Shown here in pieces: positions 6,413 through 44,460 of a stretch of DNA of 64,000 nt (positions within the stretch are counted from its first letter, which is position 1; the number at the start of each line of letters is the position of its first letter). Location: NCBI GenBank assembly GCA_049515915.1, contig JBEKTP010000005.1, positions 15,307 through 79,306 of the forward strand, read 5' to 3'. Under the pieces are notes generated by a model, which did no database searches, was not told the origin of the DNA, and was given only the letters and a program-made list of their open reading frames with translations. This DNA is from Patescibacteria group bacterium. GTDB lineage: Bacteria; Patescibacteriota; UBA1384; UBA12157; JAENIV01. The position numbers and the translations under genes are program-made.

Positions 6413-6562
6413 AATTTTCCTCTGAAATCTTCCGGTGTAATTACATTACTCTGGATAAAGCATACCATATTTATCGATATTTGAACAGAGAATCTGATTT
6501 TTACTCTTTACAGGTCGGCTAAAAGATGATAAAATAAACCAAATCACCAAAGGAGGAGCGCA

Positions 6563-6832
6563 ATGCACCTGGTTGGGTTGATCCAACTCCAAAATGGCGA
6601 ACCTCCAAAATTGCATATTTGGGGGAACGTCGAGGAGCGGTATGCTTATGTACAACTTGTACATCGTCACGGTGATTCAAGAACGGCACGCGAGATTGCT
6701 CTTGGGGAGATGATTCGACTGTTGAGAGGCGGCTGGCAACTTTGTCAGACATCGAGCAGCACGTTGTTGCTCAACTACTATTTCTGCGGCGCCAGTCAGG
6801 CGCTCGCAGCCGACCACGGGAGGCGTCAATGA
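6563..6832 (+). CDS. Hypothetical 89-aa protein in a GC-richer islet (may instead be part of a structured RNA)
   Basis: A perfect SD AAGGAGG sits 6 nt upstream of the ATG. A plus-strand intrinsic terminator follows at 6874-6910. The islet is visibly GC-richer than its flanks and overlapping ORFs occur on both strands. No family was recognised. Confidence 0.3.
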   Translation: MHLVGLIQLQNGEPPKLHIWGNVEERYAYVQLVHRHGDSRTAREIALGEMIRLLRGGWQLCQTSSSTLLLNYYFCGASQALAADHGRRQ

Positions 6833-6873
6833 CTCGAACGAGAGTTCGGCGCTTCCCTTTGTTAATTAGATCC

Positions 6874-6910
6874 GAAAAATCCGCCCCTAAAGACGGATTT
6901 TTCGTTTTTT
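6874..6910 (+). terminator. Rho-independent terminator (AAAAAUCCG / CGGAUUUUU stem, then U7)
   Basis: Hairpin aaaaatccg-cccctaaaga-cggattttt followed by cgttttttt. It is plus-oriented although both flanking genes are on the minus strand, implying a plus-strand transcript ends here. Confidence 0.55.
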
Positions 6911-6947
6911 TATTCTAAGGTGCAATGAACACTAAAGTTATATTAGG

Positions 6948-7370
6948 CTATCGTTTAGCCCATTGCGGTGCCCGCCGCGCCCCTTTAAGACCGGGCTTTT
7001 TACGTTCTTTCATCCGCGGATCACGCGTTAAAAAACCCTCAACTTTTAAAGTTTTATGAAGCTCTGGATTTAATTTATCCAACGCGCGCGCAATACCCAG
7101 CCGAATAGCGCCTTCTTGAGCAATAAGACCACCGCCGGAAATTTTAATAAAGCAGTCAATTTGTTTATCGTAGCCAGTTAGCCGCAATGGTTCAGTATAA
7201 ACGCGGCTGGGATTAGCAATTTCTTTATCATTAATGAGAATCTTGCCTTCGCCCCCGGATATTTTCACTTTGGCAATGGCGGTCTTGCGCCGGCCGATCG
7301 CCGTATATACATCCGTTTTTTTAATTTTTGTAAGAACACTCTTTATTTTTTCAGCCATTTTTTTCTCCAT
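6948..7370 (-). CDS. rpsI: 30S ribosomal protein S9
   Basis: C-terminal ...KKPGLKGARRAPQWAKR and overall S9 pattern. Confidence 0.9.
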   Translation of the reverse strand: MEKKMAEKIKSVLTKIKKTDVYTAIGRRKTAIAKVKISGGEGKILINDKEIANPSRVYTEPLRLTGYDKQIDCFIKISGGGLIAQEGAIRLGIARALDKLNPELHKTLKVEGFLTRDPRMKERKKPGLKGARRAPQWAKR

Positions 7371-7815
7371 TTAAGATCGTAAGATTTTTCAGCCATTCTT
7401 TTCTTAACTTATTTTTTGGCAGCATACCTGAAACAGCATGTAAAATTATTCTCGAAGGGTCAACCCGCATTAGGTCAGCCATCGTTTGACTTTTTAAATT
7501 ACCCAGATATCCGCTGTGTCGATAATATTTTTTTTGAATCATTTTATTAGTGCCCGTGACTTTAATTTTAGCTGCGTTCGTAATCAAAACTTTGTCTCCC
7601 ATTAAAATATTCGGGCGGAAGGTTGGTTTTCCTTTGCCGCGTAGCAGATCAGCTACTCTTGTTGAAAGTCGACCCAAGATTTGGTCCGAGGCATCGATTT
7701 TGTGAGTGATGACTTCAGGCTTAATTTTTTTGGGTTCAACAACTTTGTTAACTTTTTTTGATGACTTTAAGTTCTTTGGAAGAACTTTTGGCCGGCTTTT
7801 CGGTTTTTCGGGCAT
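7351..7815 (-). CDS. rplM: 50S ribosomal protein L13
   Basis: DASDQILGRLSTRVADLLRGKGKPTFRPN matches L13. An N-terminal Lys-rich extension is present. Confidence 0.9.
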   Translation of the reverse strand: MPEKPKSRPKVLPKNLKSSKKVNKVVEPKKIKPEVITHKIDASDQILGRLSTRVADLLRGKGKPTFRPNILMGDKVLITNAAKIKVTGTNKMIQKKYYRHSGYLGNLKSQTMADLMRVDPSRIILHAVSGMLPKNKLRKEWLKNLTILNGEKNG

Positions 7816-7816
7816 T

Positions 7817-8224
7817 TTATTTAACCTTTACTTTATTTTTTACTTCTTCTAATTTTTGTGGAGTAATTTTAGTCGCGACGGTTTCGCCTTCGATAAGTTC
7901 TAATATAATTATCTCGGCATTATCGCCGACTCGCGAACCGAATCGGTAAGATTTAATAAATCCGGAATTAATTTTTTTATATCGAGGTAAAAGCACCTCA
8001 AAGATTTTTTTTACGGCGTTCTCATCAAAAAAATATCTCATTAACGTTCGTTTGGCAGATAGATCATTTCTTTTAGCAATCGAAAATAAATGCTCGACAA
8101 TCGGTTTTACAGCTTTGGCCTTCGCCTTAGTCGTACGAACATGCTCATACAAAACTAAAGAAGTTGCTAAATTTCTTAAAAGATTGTTTCGATAATCTTT
8201 TTTCCTTGATAAAGCATTAGGCAC
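7817..8224 (-). CDS. rplQ: 50S ribosomal protein L17
   Basis: RNLATSLVLYEHVRTTKAKAKAVKP matches L17. Confidence 0.9.
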   Translation of the reverse strand: MPNALSRKKDYRNNLLRNLATSLVLYEHVRTTKAKAKAVKPIVEHLFSIAKRNDLSAKRTLMRYFFDENAVKKIFEVLLPRYKKINSGFIKSYRFGSRVGDNAEIIILELIEGETVATKITPQKLEEVKNKVKVK

Positions 8225-8237
8225 TTAGATTCTCCAT

Positions 8238-9020
8238 CTATTTACTCTTAGATTTGGCCGGCTTTTTTGACGCTATCTTTTTAGCTGCTTTCGTTTTCTT
8301 TGATGTTGGTTTTATCTCCGGAGTAATTTCACAGGCTTGTTCAATAAGATTAAAATGCTCAACCAAAATTTTCGAGGCAAGTTTTAGAGTTTCTTCAGGA
8401 TCAATCGAACCGTCTGTGGTAATTTCTAACGTTAACTTATCAAAATCGGTATTCGCACCGACGCGGGTGCTTTCAATTTCATAGTGGACTTTCTTAACAG
8501 GGGTATAAATTGAATCAACCGCAATTGTGCCGATCGGCATTTTTTCATCTTTGCGACGCTCAACCGGAACATAACCACGACCACGGTTGACGGTTATTTC
8601 CATATCAAGTTTTGCGCCTTTGCCCAAAGTGGCCAAAATAACGTCGGCGTTAACAATTTCACACGCCGGATTTTTATCAAAATCAGCAGCGGTAACAGTT
8701 TTGGGCCCTTTGGCTGTAAGATATAATATCACCGGCTCATCGGAATTAAGTTTAAAACGTAAAATTTTGAGATTTAAGATAATCGAAACGACATCTTCTT
8801 TAACACCAGAAATGGTCGAAAATTGATGAGTCACCCCTTCAATTTTGACTGATGAAATGGCAGCGCCTTCAAGCGAGGAAAGTAGCACGCGCCGAAGCGA
8901 ATTGCCTAAAGTCACCCCGTATCCGGGCGAAAGAGGCTCAACGATAAACACACCTTTGTTGTTAATTTTTTCGACAGTTTTAATTTGCACTAAACTGGTT
9001 TCTGGTAATGTAAAATCCAT
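8238..9020 (-). CDS. rpoA: DNA-directed RNA polymerase alpha subunit (N-terminal domain only; no alpha-CTD; Lys-rich tail)
   Basis: Alpha-NTD motifs are present (IVEPLSPGYGVTLGNSLRRVLLSSLEGAAI). The protein is only 260 aa and ends in KPTSKKTKAAKKIASKKPAKSKSK instead of the ~80-aa alpha-CTD. Confidence 0.85.
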   Translation of the reverse strand: MDFTLPETSLVQIKTVEKINNKGVFIVEPLSPGYGVTLGNSLRRVLLSSLEGAAISSVKIEGVTHQFSTISGVKEDVVSIILNLKILRFKLNSDEPVILYLTAKGPKTVTAADFDKNPACEIVNADVILATLGKGAKLDMEITVNRGRGYVPVERRKDEKMPIGTIAVDSIYTPVKKVHYEIESTRVGANTDFDKLTLEITTDGSIDPEETLKLASKILVEHFNLIEQACEITPEIKPTSKKTKAAKKIASKKPAKSKSK

Positions 9021-9041
9021 ATTACTCCTTCCCCTTATAAA

Positions 9042-9632
9042 TTATCTTGAGTAAAACTCAATGATTAATTGATCATTAATGTCGGTATCGAAATCTTCGC
9101 GTGTTGGTAAAGATTTAATTTCTGCTTTTAACGACTTTTCATCAACTTTTATCCAGTTGGGGATTTTAACTTTACTAGGTTTAACTAAATCTTTAGAAAC
9201 TGGACTGATAACATCACCGGATTTAACGGTTAAAGACGGAATATTTGATATTTTACCGTTAACTTGAATTTTGCGATGCAAAACAAGCTGTCGGGCTTGA
9301 GCCCGAGAAACACCCCAACCCAGCCGATAAACAATATTATCAAGACGGATTTCTAAAAGTCTAAAAAGTTGCTCGCCGGTATTTTTAGCCGATTTTGAAG
9401 CTCGTTTGAAAATATTAACAAATTGTTTTTCTCGCAGGCCGTATTCGGCTTTGGCTTTCTGTTTTTCAACAAGCTGCAAGCCATATTCAGATTTACGGGG
9501 ATTTGATTTTTTAGTGCCGTGGGCACCCGGTGGATAATTTCGGCGAGTTAAAGCACAATTCGGCGTATTACAACGATCTCCTTTTAAAAAAAGCTTAGCG
9601 CCAAATTTTCGGCATTTTGTACATTTGTCCAT
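9042..9632 (-). CDS. rpsD: 30S ribosomal protein S4 (zinc-finger type)
   Basis: N-terminal CTKCRKFG...CNTPNC Zn cluster and an S4 domain. Confidence 0.9.
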   Translation of the reverse strand: MDKCTKCRKFGAKLFLKGDRCNTPNCALTRRNYPPGAHGTKKSNPRKSEYGLQLVEKQKAKAEYGLREKQFVNIFKRASKSAKNTGEQLFRLLEIRLDNIVYRLGWGVSRAQARQLVLHRKIQVNGKISNIPSLTVKSGDVISPVSKDLVKPSKVKIPNWIKVDEKSLKAEIKSLPTREDFDTDINDQLIIEFYSR

Positions 9633-10021
9633 TAGACTCTCCGGATTTTTTTAGGTCGGGGGCCATTATGAGGAATAGGGGTGGTATCTTTTATGGAAAT
9701 GACTTTTACCCCTTGTCCACCGACCGCTCTGACCGCCGACTCACGACCCGAACCCACCCCGGCAACTTTGATAATTACCTCCGTAAGCTCATGAAAAGCT
9801 TTGGCTTTATCAAAAGCCTTTCGAACGGCAATCTGGGCCGCGAAAGGAGTTGATTTTTTGGTACCCGAAAAGCCGCTCGCCCCGGCGCTCGCCCAAGAAA
9901 TGGCATTACCATTTTCATCAGTAATGGTAACAATGGTATTATTAAAAGTTGACTGGATATAGACGATACCCTTACTGACAGGCTGAATAACCTTCTTCTT
10001 TTTTTTGATTTTTTTTGGCAT
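9632..10021 (-). CDS. rpsK: 30S ribosomal protein S11
   Basis: [30 protein letters not shown] matches S11. Confidence 0.9.
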
Positions 10022-10055
10022 TATGTTGTTATACTCTTTAAATTAAGCTCAAGGT

Positions 10056-10442
10056 TTACGTTTTTTCAGCGGCTTTCTTGCGACCCGAACCAACAGTCAC
10101 TTTTTTGCCACGCTTCGTTCGAGCGTTAGTTTTGGTTCTTTGACCACGAACAGGCAAATTTCGCCTGTGACGCATTCCGCGATAAGTTCCGATTTCTTGA
10201 AGACGTTTAATATTCTGCGACACTTCCATTCTTAAATCGCCTTCGACTTTATAATTCTTATCAATTATTTCTCGGATTCTCTCAAGCTCGCTGTCGGACA
10301 AATCGGAAACTTTCGTTCCAGGCTTAACACCGGCTTGAGAAGCAATTTTTCTTCCCAATTCAATACCGACCCCTTTGATATAGGCTAATGAATATTCAAC
10401 GTGCTTGTTGTCTGGAATATTTACACCAGCTACTCTAGCCAT
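10056..10442 (-). CDS. rpsM: 30S ribosomal protein S13
   Basis: [26 protein letters not shown] matches S13. Confidence 0.9.
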
Positions 10443-10452
10443 TTTAAATCCT

Positions 10453-10566
10453 TTATCCTTGACGCTGCTTGTGCTTGGGATTACTACAAATTACCCGCAA
10501 AACTCTTTTACGTCGAATTACTTTACACTTAAGACAAATTTTTTTAACAGAGGGTCTTACTTTCAT
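10453..10566 (-). CDS. rpmJ: 50S ribosomal protein L36 (not in ORF track; 37 aa)
   Basis: The minus-strand translation [37 protein letters not shown] is a textbook L36. It sits in its conserved position between infA and rpsM. Confidence 0.85.
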
Positions 10567-10586
10567 CGTATTTCATTAATTAATAG

Positions 10587-10808
10587 CTATAATCGTCGCG
10601 TAATCCGACCTTTGGTTAAATCATAAGGTGAAAGCTCAACCGTCACTTTATCTCCTGGCAAAATTTTAATATAATGCATTCTGATTTTGCCTGAGACATG
10701 AGCTAAGATTTCCTGACCGTTTTCAAGTGCAACATTAAAAGTAGCGTTTGGCAGAGCTTCGGACACAGTCCCCTCGAAAACAATTTTTTCTTTTTCCATA
10801 TCTTGCAC
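10587..10808 (-). CDS. infA: Translation initiation factor IF-1
   Basis: S1-like fold sequence [36 protein letters not shown] matches IF-1. GTG start. Confidence 0.9.
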
Positions 10809-10852
10809 AACTCAATCATTACTACAATTTATTTAGTAGTAAATCTGTAATT

Positions 10853-10881
10853 ATTGTAACATATTGGTCTATATTAGTCAA
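10853..10881 (-). promoter_or_regulatory. Sigma-70-like promoter TTGACT-17-TACAAT for infA
   Basis: Minus-strand -35 TTGACT (10876-10881), an exact 17-nt spacer and -10 TACAAT (10853-10858). The same consensus recurs upstream of tuf, fusA and the small ORF at 27690. Confidence 0.5.
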
Positions 10882-10894
10882 GATATGGATGTGT

Positions 10895-10920
10895 GAAGGG
10901 GCGCCGGAAGGCGCCCCTTC
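10895..10920. other. Perfect GC hairpin GAAGGGGCGCC-GGAA-GGCGCCCCTTC, with no U-run on either strand, downstream of the 10937-11278 ORF
   Basis: An 11-bp perfect inverted repeat with a GNRA-like loop, seen directly. It lies between the infA promoter and the stop of the upstream GC-rich ORF. Confidence 0.35.
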
Positions 10921-10936
10921 AGTGATTCAGAGATGG

Positions 10937-11278
10937 CTAGTTTCTTCTGACCATATCGGAGGGTATGGTGTCCAGGGGGTCGTAGGTTCGTAGGCACTGG
11001 TGGCAAAAGTACATCCCTTCGTACTTGGCGAAAAAGAACGCCAATCCACCGTCTTTGCCTTTCGCTTTCGCGCTACAGACTGTCCCCTCAGCCCGGATGG
11101 GACGATAGAGGTGGATTTTTCCACGTTCATCTTGAACACAAGGTATCCCGAGAGCTTTATATTGCGTCATAAGCTCAAGACAGCGTTTGTCGCGCCAGAC
11201 GCTACGGCGAAATACGACGTATGATGCGATACATCCTGTAACAACAATCACTCCAGTCAATAGCAGACCATTAATCAT
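10937..11278 (-). CDS. Hypothetical TM-anchored Cys-rich protein in a GC-richer islet (start moved to Met7, which has an SD)
   Basis: GAAGGAG lies 8 nt upstream of the second ATG. The N-terminal TM helix (LLLTGVIVVTGCIASYVVF) is followed by a Cys-containing domain (CHQC). Composition is visibly GC-richer than flanking map/infA. Confidence 0.4.
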   Translation of the reverse strand: MINGLLLTGVIVVTGCIASYVVFRRSVWRDKRCLELMTQYKALGIPCVQDERGKIHLYRPIRAEGTVCSAKAKGKDGGLAFFFAKYEGMYFCHQCLRTYDPLDTIPSDMVRRN

Positions 11279-11364
11279 ACTGTTGACTCCTTCCATTATG
11301 GTGATTGCATTTTAACACAAAAAAAGACAGATTTCAACGATAAAAGATTGTGATATCGATGAAT

Positions 11365-12111
11365 TTATTCTGTCGTTAGTATATCGTAACCGCTCTTGGT
11401 CACTACTACCGTATGTTCAAAATGGGCTGAAAGTGAGCCGTCAGCCGTGACAACCGTCCAATCATCTTTAAGGATTTTAACATGCCAATCTCCGTCGGAA
11501 ATCATGGGTTCAATCGCCAAGGTGTATCCTTCTTTTAAAATCAAACCAGTGCCCGCTTTTCCATAATTGAGAATAGGAGGGTATTCTTGAAGTTCTTGAC
11601 CGATGCCATGGCCGGAAAGATCTCGAATAACACTAAACCCAGCTCCTTCGACAATCGTTTGGATGCGATGTTGAATATCACCCAAGTGCAGACCCGGTTT
11701 GATAATCGAAAGACCTTCGTCAAGAGATTTTTTAGCGATATCTATTAGTTCTTTCTTTTGAAAATTGATTTTGCCCACGCCAAGGGTTAACGCAGTATCT
11801 GTATGAAACCCTTCATATTGAACACCTAAATCGATCCCGATAATGTCGCCTTCTCTGAGTATTCGGCCGCCAGGAATGCCGTGCACGACTTCCGAATTAA
11901 CCGATGTGCAAATCGAGGCCGGATAGCCCTGATAATGAAAAAATGAGGCTTTTGCCCGTGCTTTTTTTAATTCGGCTCGAGCTAAAATATCTAAATCACC
12001 GGTCGTTATGCCTGGTTTTACTGTTATTGCAAGCAAATTTAAAACATGGGCAGCGATTTGGCCACCCCTTCGCATTTTCTCGATTTCATCGGAATTTTTT
12101 TGATAAATCAT
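11365..12111 (-). CDS. map: Methionine aminopeptidase type I
   Basis: Pita-bread fold motifs are present (GIDLGVQYEGFHTD, HGIGQELQEYP). Confidence 0.9.
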   Translation of the reverse strand: MIYQKNSDEIEKMRRGGQIAAHVLNLLAITVKPGITTGDLDILARAELKKARAKASFFHYQGYPASICTSVNSEVVHGIPGGRILREGDIIGIDLGVQYEGFHTDTALTLGVGKINFQKKELIDIAKKSLDEGLSIIKPGLHLGDIQHRIQTIVEGAGFSVIRDLSGHGIGQELQEYPPILNYGKAGTGLILKEGYTLAIEPMISDGDWHVKILKDDWTVVTADGSLSAHFEHTVVVTKSGYDILTTE

Positions 12112-12126
12112 ACCACAACTATTTTA

Positions 12127-12783
12127 CTAAGGATCACTGAAGATTTTTTCCACCTTTAATTCAATCTCATCGGCAACCTCATCAATTGGTGGGTTGCCGT
12201 CAATCTCAATTAAGACCTTTAATTTTTTATAAAAATCAATCAAAGGTTTAGTTTGTTCATTATAAACTGCTAAACGTTCTTTGACAACATCAGGTTTATC
12301 GTCTTCGCGCAAAATTAAATCTCCGTGGCATTCGTCACACTTTTTAATTTTTAGCTGAGCGGGGTTCTGAAAGATTTTTTTACAATTTTGACAAACGCGG
12401 CGGGTTGAGATGCGCTCGATTAAATTTTTCGAATCAACCTTTAAATTTAAAACAAAGACTTTACTTTTCGTGGTATTAAAATAATTTTGGAGATGTTCAA
12501 CTTGATTTAAAGTGCGGGGATATCCATCAAAAATAACACTTGAACCAAACCGTAAATTTTTAAGAGCTTGATCAACCAACTCGTTAGCGGTTTGATTATC
12601 GACTAACCTACCCGATTCGATTATATTTTTAATTTTCTTCCCCAGGTCAGTTTTATCATTTAATTCGATCCTCATGAGATCACCTGTTCCAAGATAACTT
12701 AAGCCAAAATGTTTAACGAGCTTTTTTGCTTGGGTACCTTTACCCGAGCCGGGCGCTCCGAAAATAATAAAGTGTTTTGTCAT
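12127..12783 (-). CDS. adk: Adenylate kinase (Zn-lid type)
   Basis: P-loop GAPGSGKGTQA and lid CQNCKKIF...CDEC. The start is placed at MTKHF rather than the upstream Met. Confidence 0.9.
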   Translation of the reverse strand: MTKHFIIFGAPGSGKGTQAKKLVKHFGLSYLGTGDLMRIELNDKTDLGKKIKNIIESGRLVDNQTANELVDQALKNLRFGSSVIFDGYPRTLNQVEHLQNYFNTTKSKVFVLNLKVDSKNLIERISTRRVCQNCKKIFQNPAQLKIKKCDECHGDLILREDDKPDVVKERLAVYNEQTKPLIDFYKKLKVLIEIDGNPPIDEVADEIELKVEKIFSDP

Positions 12784-12784
12784 T

Positions 12785-13369
12785 TTAACTTCCCCAGTTA
12801 CGAACAGAGTCAATTAGATAAGAATCACCCACCGCTTTGGTCGTGAAAATTTTAGTGATTTGGGTTTGACCTTTAAAAACAACAGTTACCTCGACTGTTT
12901 GTTCGTCGATTTGAACAATATTGCTGATCACCGATTGGGTAGGTGGATTTGTTCCCACAAATGCCGTAAGCTCATCAGATAAATTAGTGATTAACTGACC
13001 ACTGGAATTTTGAAGATTAGCCAAAGCTAATTGAGCGGTCAGCGTTAGTAGATTCTTGGCATCTTGAGCGTTTTGATCATTCTGAGAACCGGACGATTTT
13101 GTCCATAAATTAATAAAGTTGGTGACGGTTTGCTCCGATTGGGTTTTCCATGCTGGCGCGGTCGGCGAAGGGCTGGGTACAGGTTTAACGAGAGCCGGGG
13201 CAATAAATCGTTGATAGACAAGCAGTCCGCCGAGAAGAATAACTAATATGATAATTAAAATAACGCTCCATTGGAGTAAAAAACTTTTCTTTTCGGGATT
13301 ATTTTTAGATGCGATTTGGCGAAGTTTAGTTTCGTCAATTACAGGTGGTGGGGTGGGTGTATGATCCAA
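12785..13369 (-). CDS. Hypothetical signal-anchored surface protein
   Basis: Charged N-terminus, a single TM (ILIIILVILLGGLLVY), a Pro/Ser linker and a C-terminal domain. It is co-oriented in the cassette between secY and adk. Confidence 0.45.
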   Translation of the reverse strand: MDHTPTPPPVIDETKLRQIASKNNPEKKSFLLQWSVILIIILVILLGGLLVYQRFIAPALVKPVPSPSPTAPAWKTQSEQTVTNFINLWTKSSGSQNDQNAQDAKNLLTLTAQLALANLQNSSGQLITNLSDELTAFVGTNPPTQSVISNIVQIDEQTVEVTVVFKGQTQITKIFTTKAVGDSYLIDSVRNWGS

Positions 13370-13383
13370 ATCAACTCCTTAAT

Positions 13384-14055
13384 TTATTTAGCTACAGCAA
13401 TTAAAGTAATTGCCCAGATGCCTTGACCGCCTTTGATGTCAGGTTGAATTAAAGTGATCAGGTATTTTTGGGAGTTTTTAGAAACAGTGACCGTTGCTGT
13501 ACCGGCTGTATTATCCTTAGCTTGAAGGGTGTATTGGTCGGTATTTTGAAGACCGTAAGCCGGGCTTGAGTCGGCTTGGGCTGTCTGAACCGGGTCTAGC
13601 CGAAATTGATATTTGCTGATGTTTTTTTCGATGGCAGTGACCTGGGTCGTATTAACCGTATAGGCAATTTGACCATTTTTGGGAATAATTAATGTTTGAC
13701 CTGCTTGAACTTTATTCGGATCAGTGATACCGTTAGCGGCGGTTAAATCGGCTAAGGTTAGACCGTTTTGATTAGCGATTCCATAAAGAGTTTCACCCTC
13801 TTTAACCACGTAAGTATCGGTCGGATTCGAAGGACGAGTCGATGATGAAGCGTTAGACTGTATGCTGGTGGTTGAACTTGGACTAGGTGAAAGCGGTTGA
13901 GTCGAAACAGCATCTTGAATGGCTGGCGAGGACGAACTACCTGTCGAATTTTTTTCAAGGGTCTTAGTTTTAAAAAAGAAAAAACTTGAAGCACCTGAAA
14001 GCGCAAGAATAATTACAACTAAAACGCAGAAAAGTACCCATGTTTTTTTGGTCAT
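13384..14055 (-). CDS. Signal-anchored LysM domain protein
   Basis: LysM motif YVVKEGETLYGIANQNGLTLADLTAANGITDPNKVQAGQTLIIP. An N-terminal TM and an S/T-rich linker precede it. Confidence 0.6.
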   Translation of the reverse strand: MTKKTWVLFCVLVVIILALSGASSFFFFKTKTLEKNSTGSSSSPAIQDAVSTQPLSPSPSSTTSIQSNASSSTRPSNPTDTYVVKEGETLYGIANQNGLTLADLTAANGITDPNKVQAGQTLIIPKNGQIAYTVNTTQVTAIEKNISKYQFRLDPVQTAQADSSPAYGLQNTDQYTLQAKDNTAGTATVTVSKNSQKYLITLIQPDIKGGQGIWAITLIAVAK

Positions 14056-14065
14056 TTTTATTCTT

Positions 14066-15064
14066 CTAATTTAGCCAGCCCAAAATCTGGCTGGCTTTTT
14101 CTAGGGTGGATTTTTGCTTACTATTTAAATCAACAATATATATCTGCCCAGCCGTAAGACTATTAACCTTAGTATTGTACTGGGCGACGATGAAAGCAAG
14201 TTTATTTTGCGAATCGAGCTCAACGAATCCTGCTCGCCCGCCGTTAAATTCGGCAATTTCGGTGACGGAACCAGTATTTGGGTTGACGGTATCGATTTCG
14301 CCCGCATTATTGTTGCTGGCTTTACGTTTAGAAATAATAATCGAGTCGCTTGTCGGCCAAGAAACCCAATCCAGAACGTTTCCATTAAGTGTGATAACTT
14401 TATCGGCTTTACCCGAAGCGATACTAAAAGTATTTAAATCCGTGTTTGTACCTGTTGTGATGGCATAGGCAATTTTTGAAGCGTCGGGAGAAAATGCCGG
14501 TGAAATAATTTCCACTTGCGAGCTAACGGCCGTTTTAGGGAGGTTATCGCTTAGATTTTCATAATAAAGCGTAAAACCGTAATTTGCCTCGACATTAGAA
14601 AAGCTGGTAAAAGTAAGTTTGCTGGCGTCAGCAGCGATAGCTAAATTTTCAGGAACTGAAAAATTATCAGAAATCTTTTTTTCTTTGGCTGTTGCCAGGT
14701 CAATGCTGATCAGTTGGCCAACTTTTTTCGAGTCGGCGGAAGTAATGGCCAATACTTCATTCGCTTCCGGGGCCAAGTTCGAAAGCATAATGATTTTATT
14801 TGTTTCGTCAGCATCAGTAAAAACTTTTTTGTCACTGCCATTTTCGTTTTTAAAAATTTGAGTGGCACTGCCGATCGTGACATATAAAAGATCTGAAGAT
14901 GGTTGGGCTGAAGAATTACTCGACGTTGGAGTAATAAGATGATTGGTCGTCACTTTAACAGAAGTTCCGGAACTTGTCGTGGTAATATAGTTTTTATTAA
15001 TATACCAAGCCAGGGCCGTCACGACCGCTATTCCCAAAATAATTGTAATGATCTTTTGAGGCAT
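14066..15064 (-). CDS. Signal-anchored beta-propeller (TolB/PD40-like) protein
   Basis: N-terminal TM followed by PD40-like repeats such as SPAFSPDASKIAYAI. Confidence 0.45.
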   Translation of the reverse strand: MPQKIITIILGIAVVTALAWYINKNYITTTSSGTSVKVTTNHLITPTSSNSSAQPSSDLLYVTIGSATQIFKNENGSDKKVFTDADETNKIIMLSNLAPEANEVLAITSADSKKVGQLISIDLATAKEKKISDNFSVPENLAIAADASKLTFTSFSNVEANYGFTLYYENLSDNLPKTAVSSQVEIISPAFSPDASKIAYAITTGTNTDLNTFSIASGKADKVITLNGNVLDWVSWPTSDSIIISKRKASNNNAGEIDTVNPNTGSVTEIAEFNGGRAGFVELDSQNKLAFIVAQYNTKVNSLTAGQIYIVDLNSKQKSTLEKASQILGWLN

Positions 15065-15136
15065 AATCTGGTTTAGTTTTCGATTTAAAAAATTGAAATG
15101 ATTGATTCCCGAGTATCAGACGGCTGGGCTTTCAAT

Positions 15137-15874
15137 CTAGCCCGTATAATTAAATGTCCCAAGAATTAAATTAAAATCAGTATTATAGGCCGAAGTCTGA
15201 TCGCTCGATATAAGATTTAGTCCGCCAATAAGAGTTACCCGTGAATAAAATGATGAGATGATATTGCCGGCCTGAAAGACGACCTCATCTATTTGCGAAT
15301 TATTAATATTAACCAATTTCATGGCACTGAAAGCGTTTCCCTGACCAATTTGAATATTGGTTTTACCTTCGGCTTGAATTGACTGGACGAAATTATTAAA
15401 GGTAGTCCCGTCTTGAACCTGATTCCAACTTAAGCTGAGTAAATCTACCGATTGAGAATTAACGGTAAAATTTTTGCCTGTTGGATCGATCGTAACGGTT
15501 AACCCAGCTTGACTAGTGACTTCCTTGACTGTAAAGTCGGTAGGATATTGAAAAGTAAAACCATATTGCTGGTTAGTATAAGTTTGCCAGCCGGTGGTTG
15601 GACTAACCGGCGAGGGTGAAAGAGTTAGTGAGGGTGACGGTTTGGGCGAAGTATTCGAAATCACTAACGGTGTCGCCACGGGCCGATAATAATATTTAAA
15701 CCAAAACCAGCCGCCAACGGCGATAAGTATTAATAAATATAATATCGGCAAAGACCACCGTAGAGTGCTTTTTCGCTTAGGAGGTGAGGGTGGTGTTACC
15801 GATGGCTGCGGCGGATAAGACGTTCCCTGCCCGGCGGGATTCAAGGTTGGGGCAGAGTTAGACGGTTGATTCAA
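15137..15874 (-). CDS. Hypothetical signal-anchored surface protein (Pro-rich N-terminus)
   Basis: Pro-rich cytoplasmic N-terminus, TM LPILYLLILIAVGGWFWF, an S/P linker and a beta-rich C-terminal domain. It lies immediately downstream of secY. Confidence 0.45.
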   Translation of the reverse strand: MNQPSNSAPTLNPAGQGTSYPPQPSVTPPSPPKRKSTLRWSLPILYLLILIAVGGWFWFKYYYRPVATPLVISNTSPKPSPSLTLSPSPVSPTTGWQTYTNQQYGFTFQYPTDFTVKEVTSQAGLTVTIDPTGKNFTVNSQSVDLLSLSWNQVQDGTTFNNFVQSIQAEGKTNIQIGQGNAFSAMKLVNINNSQIDEVVFQAGNIISSFYSRVTLIGGLNLISSDQTSAYNTDFNLILGTFNYTG

Positions 15875-38716: not shown

Positions 38717-38896
38717 GCAAAAACTCCTAAAAAACAGCACAGCAAGCTCTGCTGCTTGAGCGCAGATGGATTTTATTAATTAATCCCGTCCACCCTTATT
38801 CTTCCTTTTTTCACTCCCACTGGAGGAAAAAGTTAATTTCTATAATTAGTATAACGAACGATCATTTTTTTGTCAAGCCCTAGCGGCGACTTCGCA

Positions 38897-38929
38897 TAAA
38901 ACAACAAGGCGGGAGATAGCTCTCCCGCC
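38897..38929 (-). terminator. Rho-independent terminator (GGCGGGAGA-GCUA-UCUCCCGCC, then UUGUUGUUUUA)
   Basis: A 9-bp perfect GC stem at 38908-38929 with a minus-strand T-rich tract, 35 nt downstream of the 38967 stop. Confidence 0.5.
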
Positions 38930-38966
38930 CGTGATACCTCGACACCCGGCTTTCTGATCGATCTGA

Positions 38967-39356
38967 CTAATCCCAGGGGACCCCCATCACCCGAACCGCT
39001 GGTGCAAAAACAAGTATTATCACTGCGACGATAGCCCATGGTACAATACTTGTTCCGCTGTGTACCAGCCATCCGGCACCGAGAATGGCAATGCTGGAGA
39101 CGCAACCGCCAACTAAGGCGATGAGTGGCTTCGGCCGGTCCATGTTCTTTAGCCAGTCATTCCAGAAGCACGTGAGGATGCAAAAGCAGTACATGGCGAC
39201 GATGGACACGATAGCGAAAATCACAAGCGCGATCAGTACTCGCCAGACTGTCGCAACAGGCATCCATACGCTGATCTGCCATGCGACAAACAAAGGAAAA
39301 AGCAAGTTCACCGCGAGCATCTCCGGCAAAGTCTGGTCTTCCAAATACTGATCCAT
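38967..39356 (-). CDS. Hypothetical 4-TM membrane protein in a GC-richer islet (start at ATG with AGGAGG 8 nt upstream)
   Basis: Four hydrophobic helices, a strong SD and its own terminator. It is GC-richer than rpoB and obg on either side. No family was recognised. Confidence 0.45.
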   Translation of the reverse strand: MDQYLEDQTLPEMLAVNLLFPLFVAWQISVWMPVATVWRVLIALVIFAIVSIVAMYCFCILTCFWNDWLKNMDRPKPLIALVGGCVSSIAILGAGWLVHSGTSIVPWAIVAVIILVFAPAVRVMGVPWD

Positions 39357-39432
39357 CTCGTGCACCTCCTAGTGCATGTGATCTGAAAACATTTTAGATC
39401 GTCGGAGATGAAAAGTCAAGAAAATTCTCAAC

Positions 39433-40422
39433 TTATTTGGCGAGTTCTTTGAGAAGTTCTTTGATGCCTGCCCCGGAGACGGCCGAGATAATCTGCACCG
39501 GCTTAGCAAGTTTTTTCGATAATTTACGCGCGATTTTTTGAGCGTCTTTTTGCGGTATCGTATCAGCTTTATTTAATACGATAATTTCTTTTTTCACCGA
39601 TAGATTTTCGCTCCAAGCTTTGAGTTCTTCGCGAATGACACGGTAATCTTTTTCGATATTGATGCTATTTATATCGATAAGATGAATCAGAATCTTCGTT
39701 CGTTCAATGTGTTTTAAAAACTTCACGCCCAAACCTTTGCCTTGGGAAGCCCCTTCGATCAGGCCGGGGATATCAGCCACCACAAACTCTTTGTCATGAT
39801 AGCGCGCCACGCCCAAGTTCGGTTCCAAAGTGGTGAAAGGATAGTCAGCGATTTTGGGCCGCGCGTTTGAAATAACCGAAAGTAAAGTTGATTTTCCAGC
39901 GTTGGGCAAACCGATCAAGCCGACATCGGCAATAAGTTTAAGTTCCAAATACATTTCCTTTTCTTCGCCAGCAAGACCGCGCTTAGCAATGTAAGGCGTT
40001 TGATGAACGGCGGTGGCAAAATGCGTATTACCCCAACCCCCGCGGCCTCCCTTGGCGACCAATAATCTATCCCCCTCCTTTATGAAATCGTAAATAATTC
40101 CATCATTTTGAGATTTAAGATTTAAATTTTGAATTTTTACTATTGTTCCCGGTGGCACTGGTAATTCTAAATCCTCGGCGTTTTTGCCGGTTTGTTTTTT
40201 GGGACGGCCAGTTTCGCCATTTTCCGCCTGCCACTGCTTTTTCCGAGCATAATCAGTCAGAGTGTGCGTATTTCCTGAACAAATTAAATAAATATCGCCG
40301 CCTTTACCACCATCGCCGCCGTCCGGTCCGCCTTTGGGCACATATTTTTCATGTCGAAAAGAGATGGCGCCATCACCACCTTTACCCGCCACAATATGAA
40401 TTTTCGCTTCATCGGTAATCAT
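39433..40422 (-). CDS. obgE: GTPase Obg
   Basis: Gly-rich Obg fold N-terminus (GKGGDGAISFRHEKYVPKGGPDGGDGGKGGDIY) and a GTPase domain (GLPNAGKST, NKAD). Confidence 0.9.
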   Translation of the reverse strand: MITDEAKIHIVAGKGGDGAISFRHEKYVPKGGPDGGDGGKGGDIYLICSGNTHTLTDYARKKQWQAENGETGRPKKQTGKNAEDLELPVPPGTIVKIQNLNLKSQNDGIIYDFIKEGDRLLVAKGGRGGWGNTHFATAVHQTPYIAKRGLAGEEKEMYLELKLIADVGLIGLPNAGKSTLLSVISNARPKIADYPFTTLEPNLGVARYHDKEFVVADIPGLIEGASQGKGLGVKFLKHIERTKILIHLIDINSINIEKDYRVIREELKAWSENLSVKKEIIVLNKADTIPQKDAQKIARKLSKKLAKPVQIISAVSGAGIKELLKELAK

Positions 40423-40500
40423 CGGCCCATTCTATCATAAAATTTTTTTTAATTCAATATACCCTTCCTGTATTTTAATTTTAAATTTTAGCTTTAAGTT

Positions 40501-41319
40501 TTAATAAATATATCCCATCACGTCGCCTTCGTGGGCGGAGATCACTCGACGGTCAACGATCCCCCAGCCGGCATAATTCATTTCGGAGATGGTGACCGAA
40601 TTGCCGCTGACGGATTCAACATAGGCAACATGACCCATCCACGATTCATTGAGAACAACAATAGCACCCGCGGCCGGTTCGCTACCAGTCGGATAACCGG
40701 CGCCGCGCGCCGAGGAAAGCCAATTTCGAGCATTACCCCAGCCGCTCGGCACGTAACGACGAGTGGCCACATAATAAGTGCACCAACCGTATGGATAAGC
40801 ATTATTTTTTGATCCAGCTGGACGTTTAACCGCACTGACCCCAGCTACCAGCCTGGTTTGCAATTTTGCCAGTGTTTGAGGATCAAGATCTTGCGGCGGA
40901 AGCTTGAGCTGTTGACCCGGCCGAATATTATCGGATGAAAGACTATTAAGCGCTTTAATAGAAGCAATCTTTAAGCCGTAGCTCCAGCCGATGCTCGAAA
41001 GAGTATCGCCGTTTTGAACGGTATAGGTAATTGTAGAAGTCCTTGTGACGTTATTAATCGTTGGAGACACGGCTGGGGCGGCGGGAGCCGTAATTTGAGT
41101 TTCCGTTGTCAACGGTTTATCAAGATAATCAGTGCTACCAACAGCTAAAGCTATAGTGACCGGATCCACCTCCACCATCGGAGTATAATTAGAAATGCCA
41201 GAAGCCACACTAGCTACATCGGCCGGGGAAACGTCCATTACGTCAGCCGCCGGTGAATAACCAGCATAATTGGCCATTGTTTTACTGTAATCGGCAAAAA
41301 AACTAAAAGCTGCCAACAA
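40501..41319 (-). CDS. LysM + CHAP domain peptidoglycan hydrolase (ORF stays open upstream to 41511 and may start at ATT 41509-41511)
   Basis: LysM motif YTVQNGDTLSSIGWSYGL...QQLKLP. CHAP Cys-His pair: AYPYGWCTYYVA...GHVAYVESV. The upstream in-frame extension encodes a charged segment plus a TM (YSAIILLAAFSFFA), preceded by AAGGAGG. Confidence 0.65.
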   Translation of the reverse strand: MLAAFSFFADYSKTMANYAGYSPAADVMDVSPADVASVASGISNYTPMVEVDPVTIALAVGSTDYLDKPLTTETQITAPAAPAVSPTINNVTRTSTITYTVQNGDTLSSIGWSYGLKIASIKALNSLSSDNIRPGQQLKLPPQDLDPQTLAKLQTRLVAGVSAVKRPAGSKNNAYPYGWCTYYVATRRYVPSGWGNARNWLSSARGAGYPTGSEPAAGAIVVLNESWMGHVAYVESVSGNSVTISEMNYAGWGIVDRRVISAHEGDVMGYIY

Positions 41320-41575
41320 AATGATGGCTGAGTACGGCGCAATATTTTTTTTGCTAAAATCAATAGCCCTTTCGGGAATACGGTTACGAAGGCGTTTTTT
41401 AAAAAGTTGATAGTACCAAAAATATCCCTTAATTACCTTTTTAATCTTGTTAATCCTGCTGATTTTTTCTTCAAGTTCTACAGCTTTGTTTTCGTCTGTC
41501 GGCTCTAAAATTGGCGCCTCCTTAAAAAGATTGACAAGTTCAAATTTAACTAATCGCCAACTTTATGTCAAATCG

Positions 41576-43462
41576 CTAGTTTCCGATTTTTCTCGCCCTT
41601 ACCTCCTTTTTATAGCACTCTAAAATATCACCAACTAATATTTTAGTCTCGGTAATAACTTTTAGCCCACACTCAAAACCTTCTAAAACCTCATGAACAT
41701 CGTTTTTATTTTGCTGAAGGTTCTCAACTCTACCTTCACCAATAGTATCTTTATCACGGGTGATTTTGACTTCGGTCTTGTTTTCGATTTGGCCGGTTGT
41801 CACTTTGCCGCCAATAATTTTTTCGTTTCGGTGAACTTTAAAAACAGCTAAAACTTCCAAGCGGCCAATTTCGGTTTCGATTATTTCCGGTTCCAAGAGC
41901 CCCGACAAAGCCGCCGCCAGATCGTCGATAAGTTGGTAAATAATATCATAAATTGAAATTTTAATATTTTCGCGGCGAGCCAAATTCATCACGTCAGCAT
42001 CGACTTTGACCCGAAAACCAATCACTAAAGCGTTTGAAGCTAAAGCCATATTGATATCTGATTCTGAGACATCGCCTACGCCTTCATGGATAATATTGAT
42101 TTTAACTTCCTCGGTCGAAATGTTTTTTAAGGATGTCGTAATGGCTTTAAGCGAGCCGTTGACATCGGCTTTAAGAACAATATTTAATTCCTTGATTTTG
42201 CCTTCTTTAATATCGCTGGATAATTCGGTAATCGAAAGCACTTTTCGTTTGATTGTCTTGGCTTTGGTCATTTCGCGAGCATTTTTTTCATCGGCGACCA
42301 CCTCAAAGCGGTCGCCAAAATTAGGCAAATCCTGCAGTCCAGCGATTTGGACTGGCGTTGACGGACCAGCTGTTAAAATTTTTTTACTTAAATAATTTTC
42401 CATAATCCGAATTTTGCCATAGGTTCGACCAATAACGACCGGATCACCCAGTTTTAAAGTTCCTTCTTGGACTAAAACCGTGGCCAGCGGCCCCAAACCA
42501 GCTTGCATATGAGACTCAATCACCACGCCGGAGGCCGGCAAGTTCGGATCGGCTTTAAGCTCGGCTAAATCAGCTACTAATAGAATCATTTCTAAAAGGC
42601 TGTCGATATTTTGCCCAGTTTTAGCGGAAACTTCCACTATCGGTGTCTTGCCACCCCATTCCTCAGGCGAGAGTCCAATATCAGCTAATTGCCTTTTGGT
42701 TTTATCAATATCGGCGTCCGGCAAATCCACTTTATTGATCGCGATCACTATGGGTACGTTAGCCGCTTTAGCATGGTTAGCCGCTTCAACCGTTTGCGGT
42801 TTGACACCATCATTGGCGGCAACAACTAAAACGACTACGTCGGTGATATTAGCGCCATGAGCGCGCATCGCCGAAAATGCTTCATGGCCAGGAGTATCTA
42901 AAAAAGTAATCGCCCTTTCTTCATTTTTAATCTTAGATTTTTGATTTTTTATTTTTATCTGGTACGCCCCAATATGTTGAGTGATGCCGCCGGATTCAGT
43001 CGAGACAACATCGGTTTGACGAATGGCGTCGAGTAATTTAGTTTTACCATGATCAACATGACCCATGACGGTGACCACCGGCGCCCGCAGAATTAGATTT
43101 TTCTTTTTATTAATAGTTTTCGCTTTAAGAGCTTTAATATTTGCACTTTCGGTTTTAAGTTTGACTTCGAACCCCAATTCATCGCCAATGATCAACATTG
43201 TATCAAAATCAATGGACTCATTTATCGTGGCCATCACCCCATTTTTAACTAAACTACCAATCACATCCGTCACCGGAAAACCTAAAGCGGCCGCAAACTC
43301 GCGCACGGTCAAAACCGAAGATACCTCAACAGACGGCTTCGCCGCTGATTGCTCATCTTTGATCGCTGCTTGCTCCTTTTTCTGCGATATGCCAGAAGCG
43401 ATATATTTTAGCTCGGCTTTGGCCTCTTTTTTACTCAATTTTCTCTGACGTCTTTTTGCCAT
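41576..43462 (-). CDS. infB: Translation initiation factor IF-2
   Basis: G-domain [24 protein letters not shown] and NKVD motifs plus C-terminal IF-2 domains. Confidence 0.9.
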   Translation of the reverse strand: MAKRRQRKLSKKEAKAELKYIASGISQKKEQAAIKDEQSAAKPSVEVSSVLTVREFAAALGFPVTDVIGSLVKNGVMATINESIDFDTMLIIGDELGFEVKLKTESANIKALKAKTINKKKNLILRAPVVTVMGHVDHGKTKLLDAIRQTDVVSTESGGITQHIGAYQIKIKNQKSKIKNEERAITFLDTPGHEAFSAMRAHGANITDVVVLVVAANDGVKPQTVEAANHAKAANVPIVIAINKVDLPDADIDKTKRQLADIGLSPEEWGGKTPIVEVSAKTGQNIDSLLEMILLVADLAELKADPNLPASGVVIESHMQAGLGPLATVLVQEGTLKLGDPVVIGRTYGKIRIMENYLSKKILTAGPSTPVQIAGLQDLPNFGDRFEVVADEKNAREMTKAKTIKRKVLSITELSSDIKEGKIKELNIVLKADVNGSLKAITTSLKNISTEEVKINIIHEGVGDVSESDINMALASNALVIGFRVKVDADVMNLARRENIKISIYDIIYQLIDDLAAALSGLLEPEIIETEIGRLEVLAVFKVHRNEKIIGGKVTTGQIENKTEVKITRDKDTIGEGRVENLQQNKNDVHEVLEGFECGLKVITETKILVGDILECYKKEVRARKIGN

Positions 43463-43610
43463 GGTAAATTGATTTTATCACCTTCAGGAGTAGATAGCAA
43501 GCATATGAGAAACCCAGCAAACCTTAGACGGTCCACGGGGCTTTTGTTCTTCCCCTCGGTCATTTTAAGAATGTATCGTCAAACGTTCACTCACGATATA
43601 ATAATGTTAA

Positions 43611-43904
43611 ATGAAAAAAGTTATTTTAATTATTGCAATTCTTATTGTAGTTGGTCTGGCCGCCGGCGTAGTTTACTTTTGGCAAACACATAAAAATATG
43701 AAATACACCGATTGGACGACCATTCAAGAACAATTCCAAAGCTGCCGTATTGCGAGTGTTGACCAGACCCATGGCCGCTTAGTCAATCTAATTCTCAAAG
43801 ATGGTTCGCGTGAATATGTTTTGGAGCCAAAAAAAGACTATATAATTGACGAATTGGTCAATGCTCTCAATAAATGCGGTCAAATTGATCTAAAAACTAA
43901 ATAA
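43611..43904 (+). CDS. Hypothetical small signal-anchored protein
   Basis: N-terminal TM (VILIIAILIVVGLAAGVVYFW) and a ~70-aa C-terminal domain with two Cys. TATAAT lies ~14 nt upstream of the ATG. Confidence 0.4.
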   Translation: MKKVILIIAILIVVGLAAGVVYFWQTHKNMKYTDWTTIQEQFQSCRIASVDQTHGRLVNLILKDGSREYVLEPKKDYIIDELVNALNKCGQIDLKTK

Positions 43905-43956
43905 TGTTCTTTCGCGGTAAGGCTTGCAAAAAGTAAACGATTTTAGGAATATGGGT

Positions 43957-43965
43957 GGGGGGGGG
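43957..43965. repeat. G9 homopolymeric tract at the 5' end of the GC-rich islet ORF
   Basis: gtgggggggggag seen directly. It lies within codons 2-4 of the longer GTG-initiated ORF (43955), or 35 nt upstream of the ATG at 44000. Confidence 0.7.
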
Positions 43966-43999
43966 AGCACTTCTCACAATTTATGCAGGAAGGACCACT

Positions 44000-44401
44000 A
44001 TGGAAGTAATTCATCAGATCGTAACTCAGATTGTGATTATGGCGCGCGAGAATGATGGCGGGGAAAGCAGTTTCATCGCCAAGATTCTCGCAAGGAGTCT
44101 CCTGTGCTGCAACATCAAGGTGGTTGCGGCCGGTGAGCCCATCCCCGATCTCAAAGGCGAGGACGACATCCTGGTTCTCTCGACCGAACGGCTCCAAACG
44201 GTCAACCAGGCCGCCGAGATGGTTACCGCCACCGACGGCGAGATCCTGATACTGGAAGAGAACAACGCTTTTCCCGTTCCTGGCGAAGTTCGAACGGTCA
44301 TTACTAACATTCCCAAACTGCACTTCGGGAATGTTACCAGGTTGACAGGAACAGACTTGGCTGAAACCGTCCTCGAACAGATCGCCAAGATCAGACAATA
44401 A
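44000..44401 (+). CDS. Hypothetical 133-aa protein in a GC-rich islet (alternative GTG start at 43955)
   Basis: SD GGAAGGA lies 5 nt upstream of the ATG. A GC hairpin follows the stop. No family was recognised. The antisense ORF 43943-44440 is judged an artefact of high GC. Confidence 0.4.
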   Translation: MEVIHQIVTQIVIMARENDGGESSFIAKILARSLLCCNIKVVAAGEPIPDLKGEDDILVLSTERLQTVNQAAEMVTATDGEILILEENNAFPVPGEVRTVITNIPKLHFGNVTRLTGTDLAETVLEQIAKIRQ

Positions 44402-44422
44402 AATGAACCCGCAGTACCAAAA

Positions 44423-44460
44423 GGCGGGGTGCCCACGCACCCCGCCTAACTCATCTTTAA
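44423..44460 (+). terminator. GC hairpin GGCGGGGUGC-CCAC-GCACCCCGCC with a weak U-tract
   Basis: A 10-bp perfect inverted repeat immediately after the stop of the islet ORF. Confidence 0.35.

Follow-up and report, generated by a model that had tools for sequence, protein, structure and literature searches.

Four GC-rich single-gene islets in the housekeeping region of a Patescibacteria genome

The window analysed here is a stretch of 64,000 nt from a Patescibacteria (Candidate Phyla Radiation, CPR) metagenome-assembled genome (GenBank assembly GCA_049515915.1, contig JBEKTP010000005.1, positions 15,307 to 79,306 of the forward strand). It covers the ribosomal-protein, rpoBC, infB and gyrAB region, and its proteins appear at NCBI under the name 'Patescibacteria group bacterium', ABSE91_027xx. 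The GC content of most of the window is ~40%, and that of its final ~6 kb (57.6-63.7 kb), which encodes purB and a large purL, is 55-61%. A first-pass annotation had singled out four small GC-richer single-gene inserts, hereafter islets, at 6.5, 11, 39 and 44 kb, and had interpreted them as repeated gene acquisition from a common GC-rich source or as a family of tiny mobile cassettes. Both their positions and their outlier status were confirmed. Islet 1 lies at 6563-6832 on the plus strand, islet 2 at 10937-11296 and islet 3 at 38967-39365 on the minus strand, and islet 4 at 43955-44401 on the plus strand. Their GC contents at third codon positions (GC3) are 0.556, 0.525, 0.647 and 0.624, respectively, while the native genes (n = 61) have a mean GC3 of 0.368 (standard deviation 0.044, maximum 0.456), which places the islets at z = +3.6 to +6.4. 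After correction for amino-acid content, the GC3 excess of the islets was +0.11 to +0.26, compared with -0.10 to -0.01 for small native genes. Synonymous codon choice set all four beyond the range of every native gene, and TTA, which accounts for 33% of the leucine codons of core genes, makes up 2% of those of the islets. Atypical GC3 and codon usage with respect to the host, which is one mark of a recently transferred gene, are thus present in the islets.

In the native genes of the whole window, 4-fold degenerate sites were ~51% GC and pyrimidine-rich (T.34, C.30, G.21, A.16), and two-fold codons showed a strong preference for A/T endings, so that two-fold codons, isoleucine and leucine are the main reason why the genome has a low GC3. 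Relaxed selection followed by drift to a GC-rich mutational equilibrium was rejected as a cause of the islet composition, because native small genes that evolve equally fast, and intergenic DNA, are AT-rich. A position effect, for instance biased gene conversion at hot slots, is unlikely given that AT-rich genes of 97 and 139 aa are found within ~100 nt of islet 4.

Abrupt compositional boundaries within a metagenome-assembled genome might also be produced by an assembly or binning chimera, that is, by GC-rich reads of another organism spliced into an AT-rich contig. Since the same proteins and contigs were recovered, with identical junctions, in 15-30 independent assemblies (JGI, ENA, Logan, NCBI), a chimeric assembly is excluded, and we regard the residual probability of such an origin as negligible. 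Contigs of other samples were 99.99-100% identical to the window across the islets. In addition, the islets are present on a 542-kb contig of a related species, 96-97% identical to the window and hereafter called the close relative (loci L001 and L006 are regions of it), in which islets 1, 2 and 4 occupy the same positions.

Anatomy of the islets and of their slots

A GGAGG-type Shine-Dalgarno sequence precedes each of the four islets, as the first-pass annotation had proposed. Islet 1, located between rbfA and rpsI, has a promoter-like site on the plus strand (6507-6535, TTTACA-17-TAAAAT with a TG extension) that ranks among the top scores of its region and lies 28 nt upstream of an open reading frame (ORF) of 89 aa at 6563-6832, with the Shine-Dalgarno sequence AAAGGAGGAG at 6549-6558. 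It is followed at 6873-6911 by a predicted intrinsic terminator with an AT-rich 11-bp stem, CGAAAAATCCG/CGGATTTTTCG, and a run of T7. Islet 2, between map and infA, is read from the minus strand and comprises a promoter-like site at 11309-11337 (TTGAAA-17-TAAAAT, with TG), an ORF of 113 aa at 10937-11278, for which another start at 11296 would give 119 aa, and a 3' hairpin at 10894-10921 with a perfect 12-bp GC stem, a GGAA loop and no T-tract. A promoter-like site for infA (10881-10853, minus strand) stands directly downstream of this hairpin. Islet 3, between obg and rpoB and also on the minus strand, has a promoter-like site at 39391-39419 (TTGACT-17-TAAAAT), an ORF of 129 aa at 38967-39356 with the Shine-Dalgarno sequence TAGGAGGTG, and a predicted intrinsic terminator at 38907-38930 consisting of GGGCGGGAGA-GCTA-TCTCCCGCC followed by TTGTTGTTTTA; the promoter-like site of rpoB (38876-38848, minus strand) comes immediately after it. 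Finally, islet 4, between infB and gyrA on the plus strand, encodes 133 aa at 44000-44401, or 148 aa if a GTG at 43955 were used. Its upstream region (43924-43965) contains a weak promoter-like sequence, TTGCAA-17-GAATAT, recognised by eye, and its 3' hairpin at 44422-44447 has a perfect 11-bp GC stem, a CCAC loop and a weak T-tract.

The claim that all islets but the first end in a GC hairpin was also borne out. The AT-rich 57 kb contains just three perfect GC-rich hairpins of at least 9 bp, one at the 3' end of islet 2 (10894-10921), one at that of islet 3 (38908-38929) and one at that of islet 4 (44422-44447), and further hairpins are found in the purine segment at about 58134-58163 and 59698-59727. 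The usual description of an intrinsic terminator (GC-rich stem-loop and U-tract at the 3' end) agrees completely with the predicted structures of islets 1 and 3, and with those of islets 2 and 4 in placement only. The sites upstream of islets 1, 2 and 3 are among the best promoter-like sites in the scanned regions. Because these top-scoring sites lie upstream of the islets, and the hairpins of islets 2 and 3 directly precede the promoter-like sites of infA and rpoB, each islet can be described, from its predicted signals, as a self-contained Shine-Dalgarno site, ORF and putative terminator, with a good promoter-like site in islets 1 to 3 and a weak one in islet 4.

The 5' region of islet 4 contains a poly-G run (43957-43965) that is the only variable site among contigs of the same species: it is G9 in the window, G10 in other samples of the species, and interrupted in the close relative. 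Either slipped-strand variation or a homopolymer sequencing error may account for this difference in length.

The islets had been described as inserts in intergenic positions of universally syntenic operons, and this applies to islet 2 only, in the map|infA slot; the slots of the other three (rbfA|rpsI, obg|rpoB and infB...gyrA) are lineage-specific. Interruption of conserved gene order is not peculiar to GC-rich genes, because four AT-rich non-ribosomal genes at 12785-15874, between adk and secY, also break the spc/alpha ribosomal cluster. These encode a protein of 194 aa without a family, a LysM protein, a Tricorn_N-like protein and a protein of 245 aa, and they are conserved in the close relative.

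Islets encode small proteins restricted to one clade

Searches of the four islet proteins against Pfam, PHROGs, PADLOC and NCBIfam gave nothing significant. Phage and plasmid databases, whose inspection had been recommended at first pass, likewise returned no viral or plasmid relatives for any of the four (PHROGs, scans of IMG/VR, and tblastn against PLSDB). No Rfam family reached its gathering threshold over the whole window, with only meaningless sub-threshold matches per islet at E<=1, and a tRNA/tmRNA search found none.

Comparison with the close relative showed 5 synonymous and 9 non-synonymous changes in islet 1, 10 and 3 in islet 2, and 12 and 19 in islet 4, with intact ORFs in islets 1 and 4. 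Because synonymous changes outnumber non-synonymous ones in islet 2, this gene appears to be under purifying selection, while the counts for islets 1 and 4 suggest weak constraint. The islet 2 protein has an N-terminal transmembrane helix and a Cys-containing domain, no homolog beyond its own 90% cluster, and a single-sequence structure model with a predicted local distance difference test score (pLDDT) of 40. Islet 3 encodes a membrane protein of about four transmembrane helices. For islet 4, predicted to be soluble, an AlphaFold model built with few homologs gave a confident alpha/beta fold (pLDDT 84, predicted template modelling score 0.79), and the closest PDB structures found by Foldseek were PHI/SIS proteins, with template modelling (TM) scores of only 0.43-0.58. 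The modelled fold is therefore loosely SIS- or flavodoxin-like, which we take as resemblance and not as membership. Assignment of islet 4 as a SIS-domain sugar isomerase was rejected: its TIGR03127 score was 14 bits against a cutoff of 160, the Foldseek match had E 2e-4 and a TM score of 0.43, and its length, 133 aa compared with about 180 in SIS proteins, also counts against membership.

The relaxed dN/dS of islets 1 and 4 (synonymous to non-synonymous counts of 5:9 and 12:19), the long antisense ORFs, the inconsistent gene calling at islet 1 and the likeness of islet 4 to a truncated SIS domain would also be expected if the islets were not functional protein genes but structured non-coding RNAs, or decaying foreign gene fragments with chance ORFs. 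However, ORF length, start and stop are kept in orthologs that are 33-57% identical, no meaningful Rfam match was seen even at E<=1, islet 4 has a confident predicted fold and islet 2 bears the signature of purifying selection, and an antisense ORF of 77 aa at islet 1, called by one pipeline, is broken in the close relative. We therefore consider this explanation very improbable.

Same-slot orthologs of islets 3 and 4 in distant lineages

If the islets had been acquired recently, they should be patchily present and absent among distant relatives; this was not seen for islets 3 and 4. An ortholog of islet 3 with 57% identity was found in a distant lineage (L010) in which Obg is 72% and RpoB 85% identical to those of the window. 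It occupies the same slot, 75-76 nt after obg, and the spacer between obg and islet 3 is itself 67% identical between the two lineages (z 7.4). The L010 ortholog has a GC3 of 0.685, against 0.33-0.43 in its neighbours, and its own GC hairpin. A single public-genome scan for relatives, with Obg as query, returned only Bacillaceae, and a single metagenome scan with the islet 3 alignment only re-found L010.

A full HMMER pass over 1.84 billion representative proteins yielded four relatives of islet 4, all of them from Patescibacteria: an 89% copy in the close relative and three remote proteins with about 33-40% identity (34-39% in this search), one of them from lineage L016. All four genes are placed directly upstream of a conserved AT-rich gene for a 139-aa membrane protein beside gyrA, which is the slot of the window. 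The copy in the close relative has a GC3 of 0.63. The three remote copies range from 0.62 to 0.73, against 0.32 to 0.50 in the genes that flank them, and each of the three ends in a GC hairpin. In the core genes of these lineages, 65-68% of 4-fold sites differ (d ~1.6-1.9), which is near saturation. Because GC-rich orthologs stand in the same slots of lineages whose core 4-fold sites are nearly saturated, islets 3 and 4 appear, from these comparisons, to be old residents that were inherited in place and are still GC-rich. The idea of repeated recent acquisition does not hold for these two islets.

The islets are not linked by repeats or by kindred hairpins

We next consider the view of the first-pass annotation in its full form, namely that the islets represent recent and repeated acquisitions from one GC-rich donor, or else tiny mobile cassettes with the hairpins as recombination or target sites. 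Several facts speak for it. The islets have a foreign composition, GC hairpins co-occur with GC-rich genes, one slot contains different GC-rich cargo in two genomes that are 96-97% identical, GC-rich genes come and go fast, and a two-hairpin module is common to the purine segment and to the region downstream of the L016 homolog of islet 4. Nevertheless, no common repeats, terminal inverted repeats, target-site duplications, integrase or other recombinase were found at the islets: no repeat family links the four, and their flanks contain only chance-level imperfect matches of 10-15 nt. The islet proteins are unrelated to one another and, as said, without phage or plasmid relatives. Comparison of the hairpins, proposed at first pass as a check together with that of the flanks, showed that the best-shared 6-mer occurs in only 2 of the 5 stems, no more than expected by chance or for random GC palindromes. 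Further, the islets match the codon usage of the purine genes with r of only ~0.4 and differ strongly from them in the use of AAA and AAG, islets 3 and 4 are syntenic over lineages with d ~1.6-1.9, and islets 1, 2 and 4 are shared by both 96-97% identical genomes. Overall, we consider this view improbable, though less so than a non-coding nature of the islets, and in its recent-acquisition form it is largely refuted for islets 3 and 4. A common GC-rich source could not be demonstrated either, since the families are confined to this Patescibacteria clade and so do not allow a donor to be named. Two findings had been put forward at first pass as capable of overturning its reading, and both are partly borne out: the stems are alike at the level of chance, and GC-rich genes are frequent, amounting to about 13 of the ~85 genes in the ~84 kb examined.

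By contrast, a true insertion of IS30 type in the close relative has inverted-repeat ends and a TGAAGG duplication. This IS30-family element, with a 327-aa HTH_38 transposase, occupies 14337-15384 of L006 and corresponds to window positions 10894-10899, at the base of the islet 2 GC hairpin; its right end is complementary to the sequence just past the hairpin, giving a palindrome of ~22 bp per arm.

The only true repeat detected is a 69-nt two-hairpin terminator module of the purine segment, which is not found at the four islets. It lies at 58096-58164 on the minus strand, after purB, where the GC stem is accompanied by GAGAACGAAAGCTCTTTTT, and has a 91% copy at 59660-59728 after purL and a partial one at 63797-63833 after the next gene. 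The module is made up of a GC stem, GGGCGGAGCGGAC/GTCCGCCCCGCCC, and an AGAGC-TTTC-GYTCT hairpin flanked by A-runs (T-runs on the gene strand). A similar GC hairpin with GAGAACGAAAGTTCTTTTTTT follows the islet 4 homolog in L016 (about 1850-1920).

GC-rich genes form the flexible part of the genome

The GC-rich class accounts for ~14% of the ~84 kb, which comprise the window and the sequence beyond it. Past the window end, the same contig interleaves GC-rich with AT-rich genes, among the former purH, a truncated ketoacyl synthase, a cupin and two small ORFans. Within the window, purB (58170-59588) and purL (59750-63661), both on the minus strand and of 58-59% GC, served as the comparison set. 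At the left edge of the purine segment there is a fifth unit of the same style as the islets (57611-58085, plus strand), with an ORF of 138 aa at 57611-58027 (GC3 0.73) and a GC hairpin at 58060-58085. This gene is absent from the close relative, and the breakpoints of the indel fall at terminator-module repeats. Its product is homologous (37% identity, E 4e-18) to that of a 132-aa gene which adjoins the islet 4 homolog in L016, and this ties the small ORFans and the purine segment to one gene pool.

Nearly all structural differences between the window species and the close relative concern the GC-rich class or selfish elements. In the close relative, a GC-rich YkuD gene that carries a GC hairpin of its own takes the place of the islet 3 module, and the breakpoints of this swap are the obg stop codon and 38877/38878, that is, the -35 hexamer of rpoB. 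The 5' 3 kb of purL are replaced there by an IS200-like transposase gene, purH is missing and another GC-rich gene stands in its place; the purine genes are dispensable and decaying in that lineage. At the gyrB locus, a mini-intein is present in the window (799 aa) and absent from the close relative (643 aa). The comparison shows that what near-identical strains gain, swap and lose is the GC-rich fraction of the genome, including the purine genes. At locus L023 of the close relative (8456-9922, compared with window 59750-63661), what is left of purL is an 850-bp 3' remnant next to the IS200-like Y1 transposase gene, and purB is kept. Between infB and the 97-aa gene, L001 (8716-9567) contains a UbiA-family gene of 852 bp (GC3 0.49) that is absent at window 43566/43567, with a clean presence/absence junction at which only 'TA' is common.

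GC-rich genes of different lineages share a codon dialect, with correlations of relative synonymous codon usage of r = 0.59-0.76 overall and 0.80-0.89 among G/C-ending codons. The four islets fit this dialect weakly (r = 0.35-0.42 on 460 codons). The proposed likeness between islets and purine genes thus stands in that both belong to one compositional class and to the flexible genome part, and falls in that the match in codon dialect is weak and the stems are unrelated. In Patescibacteria, genomic islands and singly transferred genes have been reported to account for up to 13% of the length of the genome (PMC12455944).

A proposed reading: accessory transcription units of mixed age

Considering all these results, we lean, with confidence that is about evenly balanced, towards reading the islets as independent, moron-like single-gene accessory transcription units of foreign composition and mixed ages, and not as a family of mobile cassettes. 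Each unit would consist of a GGAGG site, the reading frame of a small protein confined to the clade, and a terminator of stem-loop type, with a sigma-70-like promoter site that is good in islets 1 to 3 and weak in islet 4, and would lie after one housekeeping unit has ended and ahead of the promoter of the following one. The islets would form part of a larger GC-rich fraction of foreign type that also includes purB, purL, purH and small ORFans. Most likely, horizontal transfer brought them in on separate occasions, and islets 3 and 4, at the least, would predate the split from lineages whose core synonymous sites are near saturation. After entry, the units would have been inherited in place, with occasional replacement of a whole promoter-to-terminator module, as in the islet 3/YkuD swap, for which recombination in the core genes on either side is the probable route. 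The GC hairpins would serve as ordinary terminators that insulate the neighbouring operons, and would be neither recombination sites nor akin to one another.

A number of results weigh against this reading. No donor lineage was found, the islet homologs being confined to the same Patescibacteria clade or absent. For islets 1 and 2 no distant orthologs are known, deep relatives of their slots not having been sampled. The total count of promoter-like sites in the scanned regions did not exceed that of shuffled sequence, and for this reason the sites are argued from their position. Two of the three GC hairpins, those of islets 2 and 4, are correctly placed and have a poor T-tract or none. Finally, the persistence of GC-richness is hard to accommodate. 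Pooled 4-fold divergence of the GC-rich families was 56/107 = 0.52, compared with 0.65-0.68 in core genes, which points to synonymous constraint or to a coalescence younger than the host lineages. Given that each lineage has accumulated ~0.8-0.95 substitutions per 4-fold site after the splits and that the present GC3 excess is +0.17 to +0.32, simple amelioration would, by a rough calculation, need an ancestral GC3 of ~0.9 to >1.0. Such lasting GC-richness does not fit a plain model of foreign DNA decaying to host composition. Possible reasons for it are synonymous constraint, that is, active maintenance; spread of modules among lineages after the splits; or a very GC-rich unsampled donor.

The first of these possibilities amounts to a different explanation of the islets, in which selection or a gene-specific biased process keeps these genes or their transcripts GC-rich, for the sake of mRNA stability or structure or through expression throttled by rare G/C-ending codons, so that GC-richness would be functional and not a fading foreign mark. 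It would account for orthologs in up to five lineages having a GC3 of 0.62-0.73 beside native genes, the fast-evolving 139-aa transmembrane gene included, of 0.32-0.50, and also for the 4-fold divergence below that of core genes. In the same line, the GC-rich stretch of each unit matches its transcribed part, promoters being AT-rich, and GC-rich genes across lineages have one codon dialect in common (r 0.76-0.89). Compared with synonymous shuffles, islet 4 (z -3.1) and its L016 ortholog (-2.2) had lower folding energies, and so did islet 1 (-2.5). These z values are, however, modest and overlap controls (down to -1.85), and islets 2 and 3 show no such effect. Also, the 4-fold comparison has a small sample of 20-40 sites per pair, no known mechanism or precedent was found, and the class includes ordinary enzymes, purB, purL and purH, that are being lost in the close relative like dispensable foreign DNA. 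We judge active maintenance to be possible and clearly less probable than the accessory-unit reading. With the same reserve, small clade-specific genes might have been held GC-rich, with reduced synonymous divergence and in fixed slots, while the neutral sites around them nearly turned over. If so, there would be gene-specific selection on composition, acting on RNA stability or structure or on rare-codon-limited expression, or else the slots would be re-supplied time and again from a hidden reservoir that is GC-rich, for example a host or an episome.

Comparison with known systems

Compositionally atypical accessory genes are already known as a phenomenon in Patescibacteria. As in the acquired islets and single genes of these bacteria described in PMC12455944, the islets are small, atypical and variable accessory genes and belong to a class of similar extent, ~14% here and up to 13% there, but the four are linked to neither a donor nor a mobility gene. 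Nor does standard amelioration (Lawrence and Ochman 1997, cited there) predict orthologs that are still GC-rich in the same slot of near-saturated lineages. In Rhizobium leguminosarum (PMC1557990), a coherent accessory class of composition and codon usage likewise exists beside the core; in our case the accessory class is GC-richer than the core and consists of single genes scattered within core operon neighbourhoods, and plasmids or large islands do not carry it.

A closer likeness is found in phages. Morons, a concept associated with Hendrix and Juhala, are extra single genes with their own promoter and terminator, located between genes that are adjacent in relatives. Like them, the islets appear to be autonomous units of atypical composition, and the content of the islet 3/YkuD slot varies between close relatives. 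Unlike them, the islets lie in a cellular chromosome among housekeeping genes (rbfA/rpsI, map/infA, obg/rpoB, infB/gyrA), have no PHROG or IMG/VR relatives, and at least two of them seem to be anciently fixed and not sporadic.

Integron cassettes offer another parallel, since they also associate a small ORF with a palindrome and form exchangeable cargo at a fixed position. An integron cassette consists of a promoterless ORF and an attC site, an imperfect palindrome of 57-141 nt with a GTTRRRY core. In contrast, the islets have promoter-like sites of their own and palindromes of 22-28 nt with perfect stems of 9-12 bp. There is no integrase-like ORF (intI) or cassette array in the window, and the GTTRRRY core was not seen in islet 3, the islet inspected for it by eye.

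As regards annotation, the islets are best treated as real genes for lineage-restricted proteins of an uncultured ultra-small bacterium, and they mark the places where a rigid housekeeping gene order admits extra cargo. That two small genes should be GC-rich in place across deep splits was unexpected. Should the pattern be confirmed for the whole genome, an atypical composition would no longer be evidence of recent transfer in these organisms, and the result would point to an unrecognised force that holds particular genes GC-rich.

Other features of the region

Besides the gyrB mini-intein, gyrA contains a LAGLIDADG intein; the intein-bearing gyrA and gyrB lie at window 45000-49373 and 49689-52088, and gyrA of more distant relatives is intein-less (999-1014 aa). 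On the 542-kb contig, rpoB was called as two ORFs of 465 and 640 aa (L001, 323-3659), which may be due to a frameshift or to an assembly error.

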